A stretch of DNA of 64,000 nt from Acidimicrobiales bacterium (GTDB lineage Bacteria; Actinomycetota; Acidimicrobiia; Acidimicrobiales; RAAP-2), in contig DASZHK010000107.1 in assembly GCA_035937905.1 (NCBI GenBank), forward strand, positions 536 through 64,535. Direction: 5' to 3'. The notes under the pieces are model-generated. The model was not told the DNA's origin. It did no database searches and worked only from the letters and a program-made list of their open reading frames with translations. Numbering within the stretch: position 1 is the first letter of the stretch; the number at the start of each line of letters is the position of its first letter. The position numbers and the translations under genes are program-made. Of the stretch, positions 42,528 to 52,142 are shown piece by piece.

Positions 42528-45500
42528 TCAGCGCCAGTCACGCGATGGTGCCACCGATCCCAGCATGAGCGGCTCAACGTACTCGGCCGACAGCGTGACG
42601 ACACCCTGACCGCGTTCGAGCGAACCTCGAATCACCAACGCCGGCTTGTGACTCGCCACGCTGCCCCACCGGGCCCACGCGCCCTTGGAGAAGATCACGT
42701 TCACGTGACCGGTCTCGTCTTCGAGGTTGACGAAGACCGCGCCGTTCGCCGTCTCGGGTTGTTGACGGTGCGTCACGACGCCGGCCACGATGACGCGATT
42801 ACTCTCCACCGCGAAGAGGGCACTCGCGCGCGTGACCCCACGTTCGTTGAGCGCCGGGCGCACGAGTTCCATGGCCGTCGCTTCGGTCGTGAGGCCCATC
42901 GACCAGAGATCATCGGCGACACGCTCCATCTCACTCACCGTCGGCAGCGGCGGGGCCACGAGTCCCGTCACCACACCGGGCAGTCGGTCGGGTAACGACT
43001 GCGCCGCGGCGCCCGCCGACCAGGTCAGCGCGCGTCGGCTCGCGCCGAAGCTGTCGAGAGCGCCCGCGGCGGCGAGCGCTTCGAGGTGGTGCTGTTGGAG
43101 ACCGGCGCGACGAACGAGGTCGGTGCTGCTCTGCCACGGGGCGCCCGCGACCACCCGTTCCGCGAGTTCGGTCCCGATCGATCGAACGTCACCGAGACCG
43201 AGACGCACGAGGGGGTTCTCCCGGTCCCCTTCTAACGTGGCGCCCACGCCCGAAGCGTTCACGTCGGGGCGCACCACGAGAACGCCGTGGCGTTGGGCGT
43301 CGGCGACGAGACTCTGCGTCGACCAAAATCCCATGGGCTGAGCGTTCAGCAACGAGATGAGAAACGCGGCCGGGTAGTGAACCTTGATCCACGCCGAGCA
43401 GTAGACGAGGTGGGCGAAAGAGACCGAGTGCGACTCGGGGAAACCGAAGTTCGCGAAGGCCGCCAAGGCGTCGAAGAGTTGATCGGCCGCGGCCCCGCTG
43501 ATGCCGTTCTCCTGCATACCGGCGTAGAAGCGACTCTTCAGTTTCAACATGCGAAGCTCGGAGCGCTTGGCGGCCATGGCTTGGCGAAGTTCGTCGGCCT
43601 CGGCCGGTGAGAAGCCCGCCACGGCGACGGCCATCTCCATCAGTTGCTCTTGAAAGAGCGGCACGCCGAGCGTGCGGTGAAGGATCGGCTCGAGTCGAGG
43701 GTGCAGGTACGTCACGGGCTCGTCACCGCGGCGACGGCGGATGTAGGGGTTCACCGCGTGTCCTTGGATGGGACCGGGACGAATGAGGGCCACCTCGATG
43801 ACGAGGTCGTAGAAGCAACGCGGCTGCACACGCGGCAGCGTCGCCATCTGCGCGCGCGACTCCACCTGGAAGACGCCCACGGTGTCCGCCTCGCAGAGTA
43901 GGTCGTAGACCGCGTCGTCTTGGGGCAGCGTCGCGAGATCGAGCGCGACCCCGTGAAAGGCCTCGACGGCGTCGACCGCACGGTGCAACGCTTCGAGCAT
44001 CCCGAGTCCGAGGAGATCGAACTTCACGAGACCGATCGCCGCGCAGTCGTCCTTATCCCACTGCAGCACGCTGCGTCCGGGCATGCGCCCCCACTCGACG
44101 GGACAGACCTCGAGGACCGGTCGGTCGCAGAGCACCATGCCCGCGGAGTGGATGCCGAGGTGACGCGGCCGATCCAGGAGTTCACCGGCCATCGTGAGGA
44201 GAAGCTCGGGCACCTCGGCGTCGGTGGCGCTCATGGTCGCTCGGTTCACGTGGTCACGGAAGAAGTTGGCCTCCTCCTCGCTGTGGCCGAGCGCCCTCGC
44301 CACGTCGCGCAACGCCGAACGCGACCGGTAGGTGATCACGGCCGCCACTTGGGCGGCGTGGTGCCGTCCGTAGCGCGTAAAGACGTACTGGATCACCTCT
44401 TCGCGCCGACCCGACTCGATGTCGACGTCGATGTCGGGTGGGCCGTCGCGCGCCGGCGAGAGGAAGCGCTCGAAGAACAAGTTGAGCGCGACGGCGTCGG
44501 CGTTGGTGATGCCGAGCGAGTAACACACCGCCGAGTTCGCGGCCGAGCCTCGCCCCTGACAGTAGATGTTGTTGGTCCGACAGAACTCGGTGATGTCCCA
44601 GACGGTGAGAAAGTAGCCGGCGAACCCGAGGGTCTTGATGACGCCGAGTTCGTGATCGATCTGACGCCACGCGCCCTCGACGCGTTCGGCGTCACGCGAC
44701 CCGTAGCGACGCGTGGCACCGACCGCGACGATCTCTTCGAGGTAGCTCTGCTCGTCGTGCCCTTCGGGGGTTACGAACGCGGGCAGGTTCGGCGCCACGA
44801 GACGGAGGTCGAAGGCCAGCTCACTCACGAGTTCTCCGGCGCGGTCGACGACCCCGGGCCAACGCGCGAAACGACGACGTTGCTCGGCGTCACTTCGAAG
44901 GTGCGCGGACGGTGACGCACTGAGCCAACCCTCCATCTCTTCGAGGCTCTTGCGGGCACGAATCGCCGAGAGCACGTTGGCCCGCGGGAAGTCGCGTGGC
45001 GTGGCGTAGTGCACGTTGTTCGTCGCGACGAGCGCGACGTCGGCGTGCACCGCGAGTTCGGCCAGGACGTCGTTGCGCGCGACGTCGTCGGGCGCGCCGT
45101 GGTCCCAGATCTCGACAGCCACGTTCTCACGACCGAATCGTTCGATGAGTCGCGCCAGAGCGCGCTGCGCGGCGCGCGGACCTTCGTCCAGTAACGCGCG
45201 CGTCAGTGGTCCCTTGCGACACCCCGTCAACACCAGCCACTCGTGCGCCGCGTCCGCGACGTCGTCAAGCGTGAAACGCGGCGCCCCCTTCTCACCGCGT
45301 TCGAGGTGCGCGAGCGCGAGCATCCGCGACAGACGCGCGTAGCCCGCGGGTGAGCGGGCCAACAACACGAGGTGCTCTCCCGAGGGGTCCGACACGCCCA
45401 CGCGATCGTCGCGGCCGTCGAGCGTGACCTCACTGCCAAAGACGCTCGCGAGTCCGAGCGCGCGCGCCGCTTCGGCGAAGCGCACCACGCCGTAGAGGCC

Positions 45501-45629
45501 GTCGTGATCGCATAGGGCGAGGCCCGACAGACCGAGACGGCTCGCTTCGACGACCAGCTCTTCGGGGTCGCTCGCGCCGTCTAAGAAGCTAAAGCCCGAG
45601 TGTGCGTGCAGTTCTCCGTAGGTCGCCAT
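42528..45629 (-). CDS. dnaE2: error-prone DNA polymerase DnaE2
   Basis: PHP 'ELHAHSGFSFLDGAS', 'PPDIDVD', 'QVESRAQM', 'GFPESHS', OB 'NLEDETG'. Confidence 0.96.
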   Translation of the reverse strand: MATYGELHAHSGFSFLDGASDPEELVVEASRLGLSGLALCDHDGLYGVVRFAEAARALGLASVFGSEVTLDGRDDRVGVSDPSGEHLVLLARSPAGYARLSRMLALAHLERGEKGAPRFTLDDVADAAHEWLVLTGCRKGPLTRALLDEGPRAAQRALARLIERFGRENVAVEIWDHGAPDDVARNDVLAELAVHADVALVATNNVHYATPRDFPRANVLSAIRARKSLEEMEGWLSASPSAHLRSDAEQRRRFARWPGVVDRAGELVSELAFDLRLVAPNLPAFVTPEGHDEQSYLEEIVAVGATRRYGSRDAERVEGAWRQIDHELGVIKTLGFAGYFLTVWDITEFCRTNNIYCQGRGSAANSAVCYSLGITNADAVALNLFFERFLSPARDGPPDIDVDIESGRREEVIQYVFTRYGRHHAAQVAAVITYRSRSALRDVARALGHSEEEANFFRDHVNRATMSATDAEVPELLLTMAGELLDRPRHLGIHSAGMVLCDRPVLEVCPVEWGRMPGRSVLQWDKDDCAAIGLVKFDLLGLGMLEALHRAVDAVEAFHGVALDLATLPQDDAVYDLLCEADTVGVFQVESRAQMATLPRVQPRCFYDLVIEVALIRPGPIQGHAVNPYIRRRRGDEPVTYLHPRLEPILHRTLGVPLFQEQLMEMAVAVAGFSPAEADELRQAMAAKRSELRMLKLKSRFYAGMQENGISGAAADQLFDALAAFANFGFPESHSVSFAHLVYCSAWIKVHYPAAFLISLLNAQPMGFWSTQSLVADAQRHGVLVVRPDVNASGVGATLEGDRENPLVRLGLGDVRSIGTELAERVVAGAPWQSSTDLVRRAGLQQHHLEALAAAGALDSFGASRRALTWSAGAAAQSLPDRLPGVVTGLVAPPLPTVSEMERVADDLWSMGLTTEATAMELVRPALNERGVTRASALFAVESNRVIVAGVVTHRQQPETANGAVFVNLEDETGHVNVIFSKGAWARWGSVASHKPALVIRGSLERGQGVVTLSAEYVEPLMLGSVAPSRDWR

Positions 45630-46708
45630 CAGTCATAGATTCCAACGAGCCACCACCGACTCGACTCCGCCACTACCAACAGCGCCTCGCCACTCGCGAG
45701 CACCATCTGCAGATGCGCGCGGCGGCGATGACGTGACCACCAACGCTCCACCAGTGGCCAGGGTCCCGCGTGCCAGATGATCTCGCGACGAAGGGGCGAG
45801 GAGAAGATCGCGGCCGTGGGCTCCGCGCTCAGGGTGCCGCGCGTACTCAACACCACGGGACGATTCGCCGCGTCGCGCAGTTGGAGCGGCACCGGATGGG
45901 CCAACGTGGTCGCCGGCGAGGGTGCCGCGAGCTGTCCGGGCCACGGCGCGAGGTCCCGGACGTTCGTCGTCGGCGAGCCCCAGGGCACGAGCGTGGCTCG
46001 GTCCTCGGGTCCACGTCCCCCGCGCAACGCGGCCACCACGATGCCTTCCGCTCCGAGACGTCGACGCACCCGATGCGCGGCGGCGTCGGCTCGATCGTCC
46101 CCTGCCCCGCGCTGACCGAAGAAACCTTGTTGCTCTTCGAAGAGATCCTCCTCACCGCGCAACTGCGCGAGACGCCGCGCGAGACGCAGGTCGCGCTGAC
46201 CTTCCATCTCGGAGAGTTCGCCACGCGCCACCCGATGCAACGCGAGCGCGTGCTTGTTGAAACGCTCCGCCACGCGCGCGTGATCGAGATCGGCGAAGGC
46301 ACCCAGCGTGTGCAGTCCCAACCGCTGACACGTGGTCGCGAGGTCCTTACGTCCCAGCACGTCGAGGGGTTGCGCGCGACGAAACACGTCACTCGAGCCG
46401 CGCGGCACGATGAGTTCGCGATGCGCCGCGAGCTCCGCGCAGAACAGCCCTTCGGCGACGCCGAGCTTGGGCTCGGTGTCCACGACGTCGAGCACGCTCT
46501 GGCGCACCGCACGAAGAACGGCGTCGTCGCCACCGAAGAATCGACTCGGTCCGCGCAACGGCAACACGTAGAGACCGAGGCGCACTACCTCGGTGAAAGG
46601 ACAGAGCACGCTCAACGCGTCGAGCAACACGATCGTGTCGCGCAACGTCGAACCGTCGGGCTGTTCGAGCGAGAGCGACTCCACCCAGATGGCGAGGAGT
46701 TGCTCCAT
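45629..46708 (-). CDS. imuB: ImuB, Y-family polymerase-like adaptor (compact)
   Basis: Between imuA and dnaE2 with TGATG overlaps; 'GPSRFFGGD', 'LGLHTLGAFA', C-terminal 'WHAGPWPLVERWW'. Confidence 0.85.
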   Translation of the reverse strand: MEQLLAIWVESLSLEQPDGSTLRDTIVLLDALSVLCPFTEVVRLGLYVLPLRGPSRFFGGDDAVLRAVRQSVLDVVDTEPKLGVAEGLFCAELAAHRELIVPRGSSDVFRRAQPLDVLGRKDLATTCQRLGLHTLGAFADLDHARVAERFNKHALALHRVARGELSEMEGQRDLRLARRLAQLRGEEDLFEEQQGFFGQRGAGDDRADAAAHRVRRRLGAEGIVVAALRGGRGPEDRATLVPWGSPTTNVRDLAPWPGQLAAPSPATTLAHPVPLQLRDAANRPVVLSTRGTLSAEPTAAIFSSPLRREIIWHAGPWPLVERWWSRHRRRAHLQMVLASGEALLVVAESSRWWLVGIYD

Positions 46709-47367
46709 CAGCTCGCCTCGGCGCGGCCGCGCCGATTCGGCACCACCACCACGTGCTCGCCACCGCGGATCGCTTCGCCGCGGCCGCTCACGCGCACGGT
46801 GAGGTACCGCGCGTCGAGTCGTGAGGAGGCGACCCACTCGGCTTGGGTCACGCGAAAGGAGAGATCGGCCGGCAGCGGCCAGGGAGCGCGTGGCTCACTG
46901 AGCGCGATCAACACGGTGCCGCGCTCACGAACCCGGTCCATCAAGCGACGCGCGGTGCCGTGACCGGCGCGTGAGGGTGGTCGCACGAGCACGAGGTCGA
47001 CGCCGTCGAGAAGGTCGGCCGCGGACTCGGCCCACGCCCCTCTCGGTCGCGGGACGAAGAGCACCCGCCGTAGGTCGACGCCGAGTTCGACCATCGCCAC
47101 GACACCGGGGTCGTCCACGCCCACGACCGCCGCCCAGTGACCTTGCGTGCTCGCCTCACTCAAGAGACTGAGGGCAAGACTTAGACCCCCTAGGCCGACC
47201 GGTGCTTCGACCACCACCGTCGAACCACGACGCAACGCGGCGTCGGGCACGAGCGCGCGCCACGGATCACCGAGGGGCACGGTGCGGCTCTTCGCGAGTG
47301 AAACGGGCCGCACGGCGGCGAGGAGCTCTGGGGAGAGGGGAGGTCGAGGTGGTGAAAAAGCGAACAT
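46708..47367 (-). CDS. imuA: ImuA/RecA-like mutasome accessory protein
   Basis: 'LRRGSTV', 'GHWAAVVG', 'GVDLRRV', 'LLDGVDLV'; start ATG 47367 inside SOS box. Confidence 0.82.
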   Translation of the reverse strand: MFAFSPPRPPLSPELLAAVRPVSLAKSRTVPLGDPWRALVPDAALRRGSTVVVEAPVGLGGLSLALSLLSEASTQGHWAAVVGVDDPGVVAMVELGVDLRRVLFVPRPRGAWAESAADLLDGVDLVLVRPPSRAGHGTARRLMDRVRERGTVLIALSEPRAPWPLPADLSFRVTQAEWVASSRLDARYLTVRVSGRGEAIRGGEHVVVVPNRRGRAEAS

Positions 47368-47374
47368 ATGTTCG
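47361..47374. promoter_or_regulatory. LexA (SOS) box, actinobacterial type
   Basis: CGAACATATGTTCG perfect palindrome matching CGAAC-N4-GTTCG. Confidence 0.9.
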
Positions 47375-47434
47375 TAAGAGTAGTCACTCCTCGTTACACG
47401 CGCCAACGCCAGTAAAACACGACAAACTGGAGAG

Positions 47435-48139
47435 ATGTGTGGTCGTATCGCCCTCTTCACCCCGCCTGCTCGCCTGGCTCGGTTCCTTGACGCGGCCCTC
47501 GCCGCGGGCCTCGATCCCGAAGGGCACCCCAGCTGGAACGTGGGACCCCAACGTCGTCTCTTTGGCGTGAGTGAACACGACGGCGCGCGCGTGCTCGATC
47601 GCTACCGCTGGGGACTCGTGCCGAGTTGGGCGAAGGATCCCAAGATCGGCAACAAACTCTTCAACGCGCGCGGTGAGACCGTCGCCGAGAAACCCTCGTT
47701 TCGAAGCGCCTTCGCGAAACGTCCCTGCGTGATTCCCGTCGACGGGTTTTACGAGTGGGACCATCGCCCCGGACGCAATCGCCAACCGAACTTCTTCACG
47801 CGCACCGATGACGATCCCCTCCTCCTCGCCGGTCTCTACGAACGTTGGCACAATCCCGACGACGAAGGCGCGGAGCCCGTGGCGACGTGCACCATCATCA
47901 CCACGACGCCGAACGTCGACATGGACGAGATCCACGACCGTATGCCAGTCGTACTCAGTACCGACGACGTCGAGACGTGGTTGAACGTCGCCGACTACGG
48001 ACCCGACGAGCGCTTGCAACTACTTCGTCCCGCTCCCAAGGGAACGCTCACCCACTACGGCGTGGGAACGGCGGTGGGATCGGTGAAGAACGACGGACCC
48101 GAGCTCACGGAACCCGTGGAGCCACAATCGTTGTTCTAA
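47435..48139 (+). CDS. yedK: SRAP / YedK-HMCES abasic-site-protecting protein
   Basis: N-terminal 'MCGR', 'GFYEW', 'IHDRMP'. Confidence 0.93.
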   Translation: MCGRIALFTPPARLARFLDAALAAGLDPEGHPSWNVGPQRRLFGVSEHDGARVLDRYRWGLVPSWAKDPKIGNKLFNARGETVAEKPSFRSAFAKRPCVIPVDGFYEWDHRPGRNRQPNFFTRTDDDPLLLAGLYERWHNPDDEGAEPVATCTIITTTPNVDMDEIHDRMPVVLSTDDVETWLNVADYGPDERLQLLRPAPKGTLTHYGVGTAVGSVKNDGPELTEPVEPQSLF

Positions 48140-50035: not shown

Positions 50036-50566
50036 ATGGCGTTACGACTGCGTCCTTACCGTCACGACGACGAGTCCTCGGCGCTCAACGCGCACGAAGT
50101 GATACTCACCGAGGACTTTCACTTCCTCCTTGGATGGAACGCTCTCATGTCGTGGTCGGATTTTCTACGAGCTCTCGACGACCAGCGCCGCGGCGTGAAC
50201 CTTACCGAGAATCAAGTGCGCGCGGTGCAGCTCGTCGCTGAAATGGATGGCGAACTCGTTGGCAGGGTCTCGATACGATTCGAACTCAACGATTTCTTGG
50301 CGACGACGGGAGGACACATTGGCTACGCCGTCGTGCCCGCGCACCGAAGCAAGGGTTACGCGAAGGAGATGTTGCGCCAGGCCCTCGTCGTGATTCGCGC
50401 GGAGGGAGTCGACCGCGTTCTCGTGACGTGTCTTGACGGCAACGCCGGATCGCGAAGGGTCATCGAGAGTTGCGGGGGCACGTACGAGTCGAGCGTGCCG
50501 TTAGAAGAAGGTCAAACGCTTTGCCAAGACAACGGACAAGAAGTTCGCCGGTACTGGTTCGAGTAG
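50036..50566 (+). CDS. GNAT family acetyltransferase
   Basis: 'GRVSIRFELN', 'GHIGYAV.P..R.KGYA', 'N.GS.RVIE.CGG'; TACGCT 6 nt before ATG. Confidence 0.88.
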   Translation: MALRLRPYRHDDESSALNAHEVILTEDFHFLLGWNALMSWSDFLRALDDQRRGVNLTENQVRAVQLVAEMDGELVGRVSIRFELNDFLATTGGHIGYAVVPAHRSKGYAKEMLRQALVVIRAEGVDRVLVTCLDGNAGSRRVIESCGGTYESSVPLEEGQTLCQDNGQEVRRYWFE

Positions 50567-50613
50567 CGCGGCTGACGTCATCGACAGAAACAGAAATAGT
50601 CCCCGGACGGCCG

Positions 50614-50862
50614 AAAACCCCGAGTGACCAGTGAGCCGAAACTCACCCGCCCCTCGGGGTTTCCGAGGCACGCCAACTATGTTCCGTGTCGGACAGAACA
50701 TCTTTGACGGCAGGCACTTCACGTCATTTGCCAGTTTCGAACAGTGGACCGAACTCCACTGCCCGCCAGAAGGATTCCGATCCTCTTGCGAGGCCCCTCA
50801 TCCCCCTACTTCCCTCTCCCCTTGCGGTTCGAAGAATCGTTGGCAGGTGCTACGTGAACTAC
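50614..50862 (-). ncRNA. candidate stand-alone structured RNA (~250 nt), family not recognised
   Basis: Closing helix, GCAA/UUCG-capped hairpins, promoter TTGGTA-N17-CAGAGT, terminal stem + UUUU; between convergent genes. Confidence 0.65.
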
Positions 50863-51080
50863 GAGAGTTACTCTGCCAGAGATTTTTGCCGTTACCAAGG
50901 CCGAAGGGGGAAATCACAAACTTATGCCCAGAATTGATTCACTTATGCACCAATTTCGACCTTATGTACAGAGATACCAACCACTTAGTCGCATCTTTTG
51001 CACAGGAGTTACCTTCGTCGCGACCATTTTTTCGAAGCGTTTGCGCTGCTCCCCGAGTCGAAACGATGCCTCGAAGAAAA

Positions 51081-52142
51081 CTACGAGAATGTAGTTTGTT
51101 CGAGCCATCGTCCGTGCGCGTGGCACCAGCCCCAATGGGCGGGCGCTGACCCCGGATTCGCCATCACGATCTGCGACGCACCGCGATGGTGGGCCTCGTC
51201 GTCGACGCTCACGCCGGGCCACGTCACCATCGCTGACTCCATCGAGATCCACGCGACGTTCCCTTCACGACAACGTCGCGACATTTCGTTGAAGTACGCG
51301 AGCTGTTCGTCGGGAGTGAAGTAAAACGCCACCCACGTGTTCACGACGATCGTCATCGCGTTCGCGTCACCTTCGTCAAATGCATCGTCGAGTCTTTCGA
51401 GTGCGGTTCCAGTAAGTTCCGTCACGCTCGGCCACGACGGACGCGCCGCCACGATCGCGTCGAGACGTTCGTGACGTCGACGTTCCTCGGGCCAGAGGCA
51501 GGCCTTAAGCCACAGGCGATCTTCTTCATTGCTGAGATCGAGAGGATGGGGATCAATGCCGACGCGCGATTTTACGCTGGGCATCTTTCTCGTTCGATCG
51601 ATCGACGTCAAGTCGTCGCAGATCAACGTCAACGCGTTGCCGTCGTCTTTTGTCCGAACCGGAAACTGGTCGAAGCAGAGGTTGATACCCGCCGACGTCC
51701 CCACTTCAATGAGATTGACCTCCTCGAAGGTTTGACCCACGAGTTCAGCGACGAGGACTTGCAAGATGGCGCTTCGACCTGGTTCATTGGTCTGCGTCGA
51801 TCGCCACAGTTCACTTCGAACGAGCTCTGGCGTGTCATGTACAACGCCGAGTACAGAAAGCGCCGCGGCTTCCATGTCTTCGATATGACCGAGGCGCGCC
51901 CTGTCGTAGATCGGACCGAGGACGGGGTGACCGCGAAGACCCGCGAGTTGCAATGCCGCGAGGATCAGCATTGGATTGCGCTGTTCCAACCGTACGGACG
52001 CGAGGAGTTCGAGCGCGAGCGTGTCGCGCTCGAGTTCGTGCAACAACGCCGTGTAGAAGGGCAAGCGTTCGTAGTCCTCGGGCGCGAGAGCGAAGTGATA
52101 GCGCTTTCGCGCGTCGTCAAGATCCTGGGTAGTAATGGACGT
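51081..52142 (-). CDS. DUF2332 family protein
   Basis: 'TQTNEPGRS', 'EVGTSAGINL..D', 'GIDPHPLD', 'WLKACLWPE...R.ERL'; frame open to 52151, likely start ACG 52142 (ORF track uses TTG 52064). Confidence 0.8.
   Translation of the reverse strand, partial: TSITTQDLDDARKRYHFALAPEDYERLPFYTALLHELERDTLALELLASVRLEQRNPMLILAALQLAGLRGHPVLGPIYDRARLGHIEDMEAAALSVLGVVHDTPELVRSELWRSTQTNEPGRSAILQVLVAELVGQTFEEVNLIEVGTSAGINLCFDQFPVRTKDDGNALTLICDDLTSIDRTRKMPSVKSRVGIDPHPLDLSNEEDRLWLKACLWPEERRRHERLDAIVAARPSWPSVTELTGTALERLDDAFDEGDANAMTIVVNTWVAFYFTPDEQLAYFNEMSRRCREGNVAWISMESAMVTWPGVSVDDEAHHRGASQIVMANPGSAPAHWGWCHAHGRWLEQTTFS

Follow-up and report, generated by a model that had tools for sequence, protein, structure and literature searches.

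A candidate non-coding RNA gene of Acidimicrobiales with a conserved fold and an upstream array of DnaA-box-like sites

Introduction

New large and elaborately folded bacterial RNAs are rare, and those that have been solved turned out to do fundamental jobs. The closest described counterparts of the element studied here are RNAs that bind RNA polymerase, namely 6S, Ms1 and CoRP, and orphan structured RNAs such as raiA, OLE, ROOL and GOLLD. Ms1 is found beside genes for a HAD-IB hydrolase/phosphoserine phosphatase and an oxidoreductase (PMC9130861), and in 84% of cases it lies near the origin of replication (ori) and is transcribed toward it (PMC4191392). It has also been proposed that each species carries one abundant RNA polymerase-associated RNA, which is not necessarily 6S or Ms1, and that new types remain to be found (PMC11077062). 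Here we describe a predicted structured RNA gene of about 250 nucleotides (nt) on the minus strand of a 64,000-nt stretch of contig DASZHK010000107.1 from an Acidimicrobiales bacterium (assembly GCA_035937905.1). This whole stretch is referred to as the window, and coordinates are those of the window unless another contig or locus is named. A first-pass annotation of the window had proposed that a stand-alone structured RNA lies here, and that it either recalls 6S and Ms1 RNAs or represents a new class. In the literature we found no description of this RNA or of DnaA-box-driven non-coding RNAs (ncRNAs) in Actinobacteria.

Results

A conserved RNA gene between two convergent genes

The RNA gene lies inside the intergenic gap between a DUF2332 gene (51081-52064, minus) and a GNAT acetyltransferase gene (50036-50566, plus). 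Conservation borders, the z-score of the folding energy and covariation together delimit a predicted structured transcript of about 250 nt (50611-50863, minus). We consider it very probable that this is an independent ncRNA gene with its own promoter and 3′ hairpin, that its product is organized as a 5′ domain, a 3′ domain and a terminal hairpin, and that it falls outside the families of Rfam 15. In close relatives, BLASTN similarity begins at the extended -10 element of the putative promoter, and in all relatives compared it stops at the U run after the terminal hairpin. The 5′ end is placed at C50863/G50862, 7-8 nt past the -10 element, because the motif TGnCAnnGT ends 7 nt before a conserved GTAGTYYRCG; the 3′ end probably falls in or just past the U run at 50614-50617.

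The window's own genome holds one copy according to BLASTN, and the covariance model R1 described below likewise returns one match. In two successive samples of the same genus, BLASTN detected one copy in 20 of 24 and in 22 of 26 genomes, respectively, with identities between about 70% and 96%. From the retrieved loci, a profile search yielded 42 full-length homologues, whose alignment (A1) has 273 columns and a mean column identity of 76%. No reading frame stays open across these 42 sequences and their lengths cover all residues modulo 3, which argues that the region is not coding.

The minus strand has a minimum free energy (MFE) of -125.4 kcal/mol, corresponding to z = -6.47 relative to dinucleotide shuffles, and none of 200 shuffles was as stable; the plus strand folds at z = -2.76 only. 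RNAalifold predicts 64 pairs on A1, 37 of them with compensatory changes. We also counted a fuller model of 91 pairs, the window's own MFE structure, on the 42 homologues and on 500 shuffles. In this model 89.5% of cells are in a standard pair, a measure that is biased upward because the structure was taken from one sequence, compared with 81.6% for column shuffles and 38-45% when partners are slid by 1-3 columns. Both sides have changed in 51 of the 91 pairs (35.2 ± 2.6 in shuffles, 28-40 when slid), and the covariation score is 0.301 (0.168 and 0.076-0.110, respectively). On each of these three pairing measures, none of the 500 shuffles reached the observed value. The sister subgroup with RNAs of about 350 nt, represented by a 46-sequence alignment, shows the same three-part plan, with 85 consensus pairs of which 28 have compensatory changes. 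Along the lines of the check proposed in the first-pass annotation, BLASTN and profile searches followed by covariation analysis have returned homologues that carry compensatory changes.

Architecture of the predicted fold

The 5′ domain (50714-50862, minus, as are all elements of the fold) is closed by P1/P2, in which GUAGUUCACGUAGCACCUGCCA (50841-50862) pairs with UGGCAAAUGACGUGAAGUGC (50714-50733). Across the 42 homologues, to which all pairing values in this section refer, this closing helix is 88.7% paired and has 8 pairs with double changes. The three hairpins of the domain are P3 (50811-50836), with a GCAA tip and 6 double-change pairs, P4 (50767-50808), with a CCUC-GCAA-GAGG tip and 6+3 such pairs, and P5 (50738-50765), with a GUUCGG loop and 10 such pairs. 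The best-conserved piece of the domain is GAGGGGCCUCGCAAGAGGAUCGGA (50776-50799), a purine-flanked GCAA hairpin that corresponds to the near-invariant columns 70-92 of A1. A comparable purine-flanked GCAA hairpin, GGAGGCGCAAGCCGAAGG, can be recognized by eye at loci of other families of the order (L182, L184 and L189).

In the 3′ domain (50668-50711), P6 (GCCGUCA with UGGCGUGC) encloses P7 (GAUGUUCUG...CGGAACAU). P6 is 95.5% paired, and P7 is 89.5% paired with 6 double-change pairs. The loop region of P7, UGUCCGACACG (50685-50695), is invariant in 42 of 42 homologues of A1, which were selected by BLAST and nhmmer. Its constancy among the loci of the pattern scan described below is by construction, because the loop served as the anchor of that scan.

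The RNA ends in a terminal hairpin of 24 bp (50611-50666), which contains CCCCGAG (50653-50659) and CUCGGGG (50618-50624), with UUUU at 50614-50617. A conserved G.A mismatch, GGC/GUC and a GUGAG-UUUCG-CUCAC tip make up its interior, and it is 97.3% paired with 8 double-change pairs. This hairpin is the only part of the RNA that BLAST recognizes in other genera, and the covariance model recognizes it across the order; it is probably both the terminator and a conserved functional module. A simple consensus terminator scan of the window did not call it, presumably because the long, interrupted stem lies outside the rules of the scan. In sister subgroups outside the window's genus (loci L062-L176), the hairpin (CCCCGAG-GAGC...GGUUA-CUCGGGG) is the best-conserved part of the RNA and is followed by UUGCGUCG without a U run, so it may not be a canonical intrinsic terminator there.

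Every sequence element quoted in the first-pass annotation is present at the positions it gave. Its hairpins CC-GCAA-GG, CCTC-GCAA-GAGG, CAGTGGA-GTTCGG-TCCACTG and ATGTTC/GAACAT, as well as the terminal hairpin, are backed by covariation, whereas three further pairings are not among the best supported. The long-range closing helix (GCACCUGCCAAC with GUUGGCGUGC, within the strands GCACCTGCCAAC at 50839-50850 and GTTGGCGTGC at 50668-50677) is 77% paired, compared with 89% for P1/P2 and 95.5% for P6, the helices that rival it; one of its pairs covaries (UA in 19 sequences, CG in 15). The pairing TTCGAAC/GTTCGAA is not complementary in the one relative in which it was read (L010), and TGACG/CGTCA clashes with P1, which has compensatory changes.

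Two near-repeats, GCACCUGCC (50842-50850) and GUGCCUGCC (50709-50717), can each pair with GGCGUGC (50668-50674), and both pairings show some covariation. Because the two strands can compete for one partner, the RNA could also adopt an alternative conformer, although this is not favored. The two pairings could be a switch between conformers, or an effect of shared ancestry.

A conserved promoter motif

A putative extended -10 element, TG-G-CAGAGT, precedes the predicted start (50870-50878, minus; TG at 50877-50878 and CAGAGT at 50870-50875). The motif TGnCAnnGT is present in 60 of 64 distinct close homologues (group-A loci), always ending 7 nt before GTAG, in agreement with the extended -10 element that had been proposed from the window. 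Other lineages have CAnnGT or CAnnnT behind TTGACC-N17-18. The -35-like hexamer TTGGTA (50893-50898, minus), 17 nt upstream of the -10 element, has the sequence and position given in the first-pass annotation but is not conserved within the genus; its position is that of TTGACC, TTGCAC or TTGACA in other lineages. Neither the promoter nor the terminal hairpin was picked up by simple consensus scans, and the case for both rests on conservation.

About 12 nt upstream of the -35 position is a TGATTTC box (50910-50916, minus), the promoter-proximal member of the site array described in the next section, which is conserved family-wide and reads GGATTTCGCG in other lineages. The closest relatives carry an inverted repeat between TGATTTC and the -10 element, across the -35 position (GATTTCCCCC...GGGGGAAATC), the arms of which covary. 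This repeat reads GATTTC...AAAATC in the window (50881-50916, minus) and is a near-palindrome, GATTTCGCGAAT, in the subgroup with RNAs of about 350 nt. It may be an operator for a second factor.

An upstream array of DnaA-box-like sites

A conserved module about 140 nt long, absent from the first-pass account, lies upstream of the promoter. Read along the minus strand, it begins with site 1, TGTGCAAAA (50996-51004), which is TGTGGAAAA in relatives and is followed by a conserved block, GATGCGACTAAGTGGTTGGTAT, that is unique in the genome (site and block, 50973-51004). After about 20 variable nt comes site 2, GGTGCATAA (50943-50951; GGTGGATAA in relatives), which is 21 nt from site 3, TGGGCATAA (50922-50930; CTGGGCAAAAG in relatives), the position of which is conserved in the genus. 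Site 3 has one mismatch to the relaxed DnaA consensus TGTGNAWAA and two to TGTGGANAA, and the sites TGTGGAAAA, GGTGGATAA and TGGGCAAAA of relatives are 0-2 mismatches from the DnaA box TGTGGAnAA. Between sites 1 and 2 there is one more box-like 9-mer, the fourth, TGTACATAA (50962-50970, minus); it is confined to this genome and shows no conservation in relatives.

We searched 138 distinct loci on both strands with the a-priori consensus TTNTCCACA, allowing at most one mismatch. Box density upstream of the RNA is 0.96 and 0.52 per 100 nt in two bins, compared with about 0.03 in the flanks and in the window's whole genome, and 129 of the 138 loci have at least one box; the loci share ancestry, so they cannot be counted as independent of one another. 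Every subgroup examined nevertheless shows the pattern, with boxes at about -140 and about -90 from the end of the -10 element in the window's subgroup and at about -70 in others. The site at about -140 is found in 55 hits and the site at about -90 (at most one mismatch) in 49, in one orientation. That orientation is shared by 115 of 117 and 62 of 63 boxes.

Arrays differ in composition among lineages. In the subgroup with RNAs of about 350 nt, the array consists of 4-6 TGGGGAnnA sites spaced by 11 or 21-22 bp and ends in CTGGATTTCGCG by TTGACC. Exact TTGTCCACA and TGTGGAGAA are among the sites of arrays seen in other families of the order, where both orientations occur. The array of locus L048 combines canonical with TGGGGA-type boxes, and in the sister lineage one TGGGGACAA belongs to the cluster of boxes next to dnaA. 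A strict DnaA consensus scan of the window's own genome did not single out this locus. The box cluster obtained with a motif derived from the locus itself was circular and is not used as evidence. Outside the window, at positions 4870-5300 of contig C27, TGGGCAAAA, CTGGATTTTGG and a TTATCCCCA box precede a strong TATAAT, a long leader and a gene that was read as Rpf-like from its translated sequence only, without a family search; the box types resemble those of the RNA's array.

Distribution

A pattern scan (TGTCCGACAYG...CCCCGAG...CTCGGGG) of one genome per species returned at least 119 loci. Among the matches listed, nearly all are metagenome-assembled genomes labelled Acidimicrobiales, Acidimicrobiaceae or actinobacterium, from soil, peat and lakes. 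Two Rhodococcus matches, considered as a possible link to genera that bear Ms1, were rejected as chance matches; they fall in a stretch that has no Rfam match and that, on inspection by eye and with no family search, was taken for the coding strand of an ABC-transporter ATPase gene. One further match had no RNA-like context. By their 5′ sequence the loci form at least four subgroups, with RNAs of 250-350 nt. Common to the subgroups are the promoter design, the invariant-loop hairpin, the terminal hairpin, and a 5′ domain of 3-6 GNRA-capped hairpins joined by purine-rich linkers.

The covariance model R1 was built from the 3′ 103 positions of the RNA; its E-values are rough, and the genomes searched with it are samples of their groups, so that absence holds for those searched. 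Within the window's family, R1 matches 139 of 151 genomes (80 of 86 high-quality genomes; 34 of 36 genera). In a sample of the order that spans more than 80 families, 31 of 151 genomes match with 37-52 bits, and in the rest of the phylum there is one marginal and partial match among 150 genomes. Most genomes have a single match and a few have two. The order-level matches are homologous RNAs and not look-alike terminators; by eye they keep a CAnnGT or CAnnnT -10 element behind TTGACN, the purine-flanked GCAA hairpin and the terminal hairpin. At two loci the RNA gene is tandemly duplicated, with copies 490-600 nt apart: L034 (899-1156 and 1500-1757), where each copy has its own upstream box module, and L039 (about 1000-1072, and 1332-1564).

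Genomic context

Neighboring genes change between lineages. DUF2332, GNAT, SRAP and EamA genes are found in the window's subgroup, GH43, SDR, NTP-transferase and luciferase-like monooxygenase genes in another, and a glycosyltransferase gene in a third. Clustering of open reading frames (ORFs) with a filter on third-position GC content (GC3) revealed no conserved protein partner by synteny. Both in the window and at most other loci the gene downstream points toward the RNA gene, which together with the differing neighborhoods argues against a leader or a UTR (untranslated region) element; for a leader, the first-pass annotation had come to the same view. Its proposal that the RNA is encoded by a separate gene, equipped with a promoter and a 3′ hairpin of its own, is thereby supported as well.

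An SRAP (YedK-like) gene beside imuA-imuB-dnaE2 usually accompanies the RNA gene in the window's genus (window 42528-48139; L008-L012 and L015). The SRAP gene is the immediate convergent neighbor in many relatives, HxlR, SnoaL, YCII and GNAT genes intervene here, and the linkage fails in other subgroups. An origin in a mobile element, phage or plasmid was rejected on the basis of the single copy and the lack of matches in phage or plasmid collections.

In four genomes, dnaA lies 340-480 kb from the RNA gene on the same strand. GC skew switches at dnaA in the complete relative G209, where the RNA gene lies in the replichore at a distance of about 385 kb and is transcribed in the direction of replication. 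The locus was also considered as the chromosomal origin, oriC, and this was rejected: dnaA lies at the distance given above, the skew switches at dnaA, and the flanking genes converge rather than diverge.

Comparison with known RNA families

No family of Rfam 15 reached its gathering score anywhere in the window, and at E ≤ 10 the locus gave only a chance-level match of DUF3800-IV to the terminal hairpin. The 6S and raiA models had no match at the locus even at E ≤ 10. The first-pass annotation had seen no resemblance to tmRNA, RNase P, SRP RNA, group II intron ends or known riboswitches. A divergent housekeeping RNA was rejected as an explanation, because RNAs of the SRP, RNase P, tmRNA and raiA families are all found elsewhere in the genome. 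The raiA motif RNA (RF03072) lies outside the window, on contig C139 (5117-5359), with 147.6 bits and an E-value of 1e-38, so the genome holds at least two large orphan structured RNAs. No 6S RNA (RF00013) was detected in the window, in the whole genome or in 151 sampled Acidimicrobiales genomes, a weak negative given that the Rfam 6S model matches only 4-5 of 14 control genomes.

Discussion

A possible link between DnaA and a protein-binding RNA

The reading that we favor as a whole, and that we hold to be somewhat probable on sequence grounds, is that of a stable protein-binding RNA, possibly a binder of RNA polymerase, under the control of DnaA. Transcription very probably starts from a sigma-A-type promoter (extended -10 TGG-CAGAGT, weak -35) and ends at the long conserved hairpin and its U run. 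Output would be set by a protein bound to the phased, same-orientation 9-mer array at about -60 to -150, and the evidence tips slightly toward DnaA as that protein. The RNA would then act in trans as a stable protein-binding RNA, which we judge to be fairly probable. RNA polymerase would be the favored partner, in the manner of Ms1, 6S and CoRP, because no 6S was detected in the lineage and because one abundant polymerase-binding RNA per species has been proposed (PMC11077062); this identification, made by analogy, is tentative and on present evidence rather unlikely to be the right one. In such an arrangement, replication status would be linked, through the occupancy of the array by DnaA, to how much polymerase is free. 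More speculatively still, and with little expectation that it will hold, the RNA could be the Acidimicrobiales member of a cross-phylum class of DnaA-driven large structured RNAs that bind RNA polymerase or another core machine. If this were true, the class would couple replication-initiation status to global gene expression, and to our knowledge a link of this kind through a DnaA-driven structured RNA has not been described in bacteria.

A number of observations weigh against this picture. The ends of the RNA, its abundance and its action in trans are all deduced from sequence, and a simple promoter scan of the window did not call the promoter, because CAGAGT matches TATAAT at only three of six positions. 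The failure to detect 6S is weak evidence for a vacant role, given the performance of the model on control genomes, and raiA, another orphan RNA that is present in the genome, could equally fill that role. The consensus fold also departs from those of the polymerase-binding RNAs. Whereas 6S has paired 5′ and 3′ ends, a central bubble and a terminal stem, no such pairing joins the two ends of the RNA here; nt ~1-22 pair with 130-150 to close a 5′ multi-hairpin domain, which is followed by a separate 3′ domain and the terminal hairpin. Ms1 is a rod with a central bubble (PMC4191392), whereas this RNA is branched and lacks one. The gene neighborhood of Ms1 is not found either, the neighbors being DUF2332, GNAT, SRAP, EamA, GH43, SDR, NTP-transferase and luciferase-like genes. 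Nor is its position near ori, the RNA gene lying 340-480 kb from dnaA in the four genomes and being transcribed away from ori. The array raises its own difficulties: the boxes in the window are degenerate, with only one within one mismatch of TTNTCCACA; the sister lineage has TGGGGAnnA in the array and mostly TGTGGA-type boxes beside dnaA; and direct repeats spaced by 11 and 21-22 bp are a layout that an OmpR-family response regulator could recognize as well. For these three reasons we place DnaA only slightly ahead of an even chance. The first-pass comparison with 6S and Ms1 had rested on size and on the lack of a detectable 6S, and neither the fold nor the synteny and ori position of Ms1 bears it out. 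The alternative it offered, a new class, stands, because there is no Rfam match and the homologues have compensatory changes.

Alternative explanations

The alternative that survives best, which we regard as a serious possibility although we would not expect it to prevail, is an orphan structured RNA whose partner is something other than RNA polymerase. Such an RNA could be a scaffold, a component of a ribonucleoprotein or a catalytic RNA, with a status like that of raiA, OLE and ROOL, and the loop UGUCCGACACG and the terminal hairpin with its G.A mismatch would bind another protein or RNA. The branched multi-domain fold with invariant loops and GNRA hairpins, unlike the rod of 6S, is what such an RNA would lead one to expect, and its near-universal, single-copy presence in the family and the lack of a conserved neighboring gene are equally compatible with it. 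However, no candidate partner can be named, as no protein gene is conserved next to the RNA, and only the shape of the fold separates this explanation from polymerase binding.

A different objection concerns the array, which may be bound by another protein, for example an OmpR-family response regulator such as MtrA, with the RNA as a member of its regulon. We consider this somewhat unlikely. Repeats in one orientation at 11 and 21-22 bp are the usual layout of tandem response-regulator sites, and the TGGGGAnnA repeats of the sister lineage have precisely this orientation and spacing. These repeats also differ at two positions from the TGTGGA-type boxes next to dnaA in the same genomes, and the presence of only one near-consensus box in the window counts for this explanation too. 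Nevertheless, exact or one-mismatch DnaA boxes (TGTGGAAAA, GGTGGATAA, TGTGGACAA, TTGTCCACA and TGTGGAGAA) stand at these very positions of the array in many members, as they do in other families, both box types are mixed in the single array of L048, and TGGGGACAA lies within the box cluster beside dnaA. Moreover, sites in one orientation spaced by 11 bp are also reminiscent of the arrays of weak DnaA sites in E. coli oriC.

It is improbable, in our view, that the locus is primarily a DNA element, that is, a cluster that titrates or recharges DnaA like datA/DARS or the Bacillus clusters, with transcription modulating DnaA occupancy. Such an element would be in keeping with the clustering of box-like sites away from oriC, at 340-480 kb from dnaA and with fixed phasing and orientation. 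However, the RNA itself shows strong structural selection, in that its loops are invariant and almost all helices have compensatory changes, which would not be required of a by-product of transcription. The boxes are also less well conserved than the RNA, and since it is the fold of the RNA that is selected, a role at the level of DNA is less likely.

Still weaker is the idea of a cis-acting element, whether a 3′ UTR or terminator of DUF2332, a bidirectional terminator shared with the GNAT gene, or a leader or riboswitch. The RNA does share its strand with DUF2332 and lies downstream of it, and about 45 nt separate the end of its hairpin from the convergent GNAT stop codon. Synteny contradicts this very improbable explanation: only some 16 of the 80 group-A loci have DUF2332 as the upstream neighbor, at others its place is taken by an EamA transporter, GH43, SDR or glycosyltransferase gene, in several cases on the opposite strand, and the downstream gene is convergent in most loci while the RNA has its own conserved promoter.

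Finally, a small protein can be dismissed almost entirely: the mechanical ORF list does contain frames across the region (50501-50722, minus; 50631-51149 and 50686-50937, plus), but none is open throughout the 42 homologues, and the substitutions are compensatory in helices instead of following codon positions.

Significance

Irrespective of its partner, the RNA is near-universal and single copy in a family of uncultured Acidimicrobiales from soil, peat and freshwater, and it is recognizable across the order. Since it belongs to a clade without detectable 6S RNA, it is a concrete candidate for the one abundant polymerase-binding RNA proposed for each species. True binding of DnaA to the array would connect a structured RNA with the replication cycle. 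The alignments and the covariance model, moreover, give a usable definition of the RNA family.

Relation to described systems

Four kinds of described system resemble parts of this locus. At the level of DNA, the array recalls datA and DARS of E. coli and the clusters of Bacillus subtilis, in which 9-mers near TTATCCACA or TTGTCCACA lie outside the origin; here such 9-mers are phased, share one orientation and lie upstream of a promoter. Unlike in those clusters, the regulated gene would be that of a structured ncRNA, the array is conserved with the RNA across the order, and many boxes are degenerate. At the level of regulation, the nearest likeness is CcnA of Caulobacter crescentus, a cell-cycle-regulated ncRNA, in that the promoter here would be wired to a master regulator of replication or the cell cycle; CcnA is described as a modulator of the master regulators CtrA and GcrA (PMC8959179). 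It bears no sequence or structural relation to the present RNA, for which no targets can be proposed. At the level of the RNA itself, raiA, OLE, ROOL and GOLLD share its complex branched fold, many invariant nucleotides, single copy and varied neighborhoods, and like it are not cis-regulatory (raiA: PMC10861870). The raiA RNA differs in that it spans two phyla, whereas the RNA described here belongs to one order and has an upstream DnaA-box-like array, and the raiA model does not match the locus. With Ms1, 6S and CoRP, finally, it shares the design of the gene and the scale of its product: a stand-alone unit with a sigma-A-type promoter and a terminator, from which a highly structured RNA of 250-350 nt would be made, single copy and present throughout its lineage.

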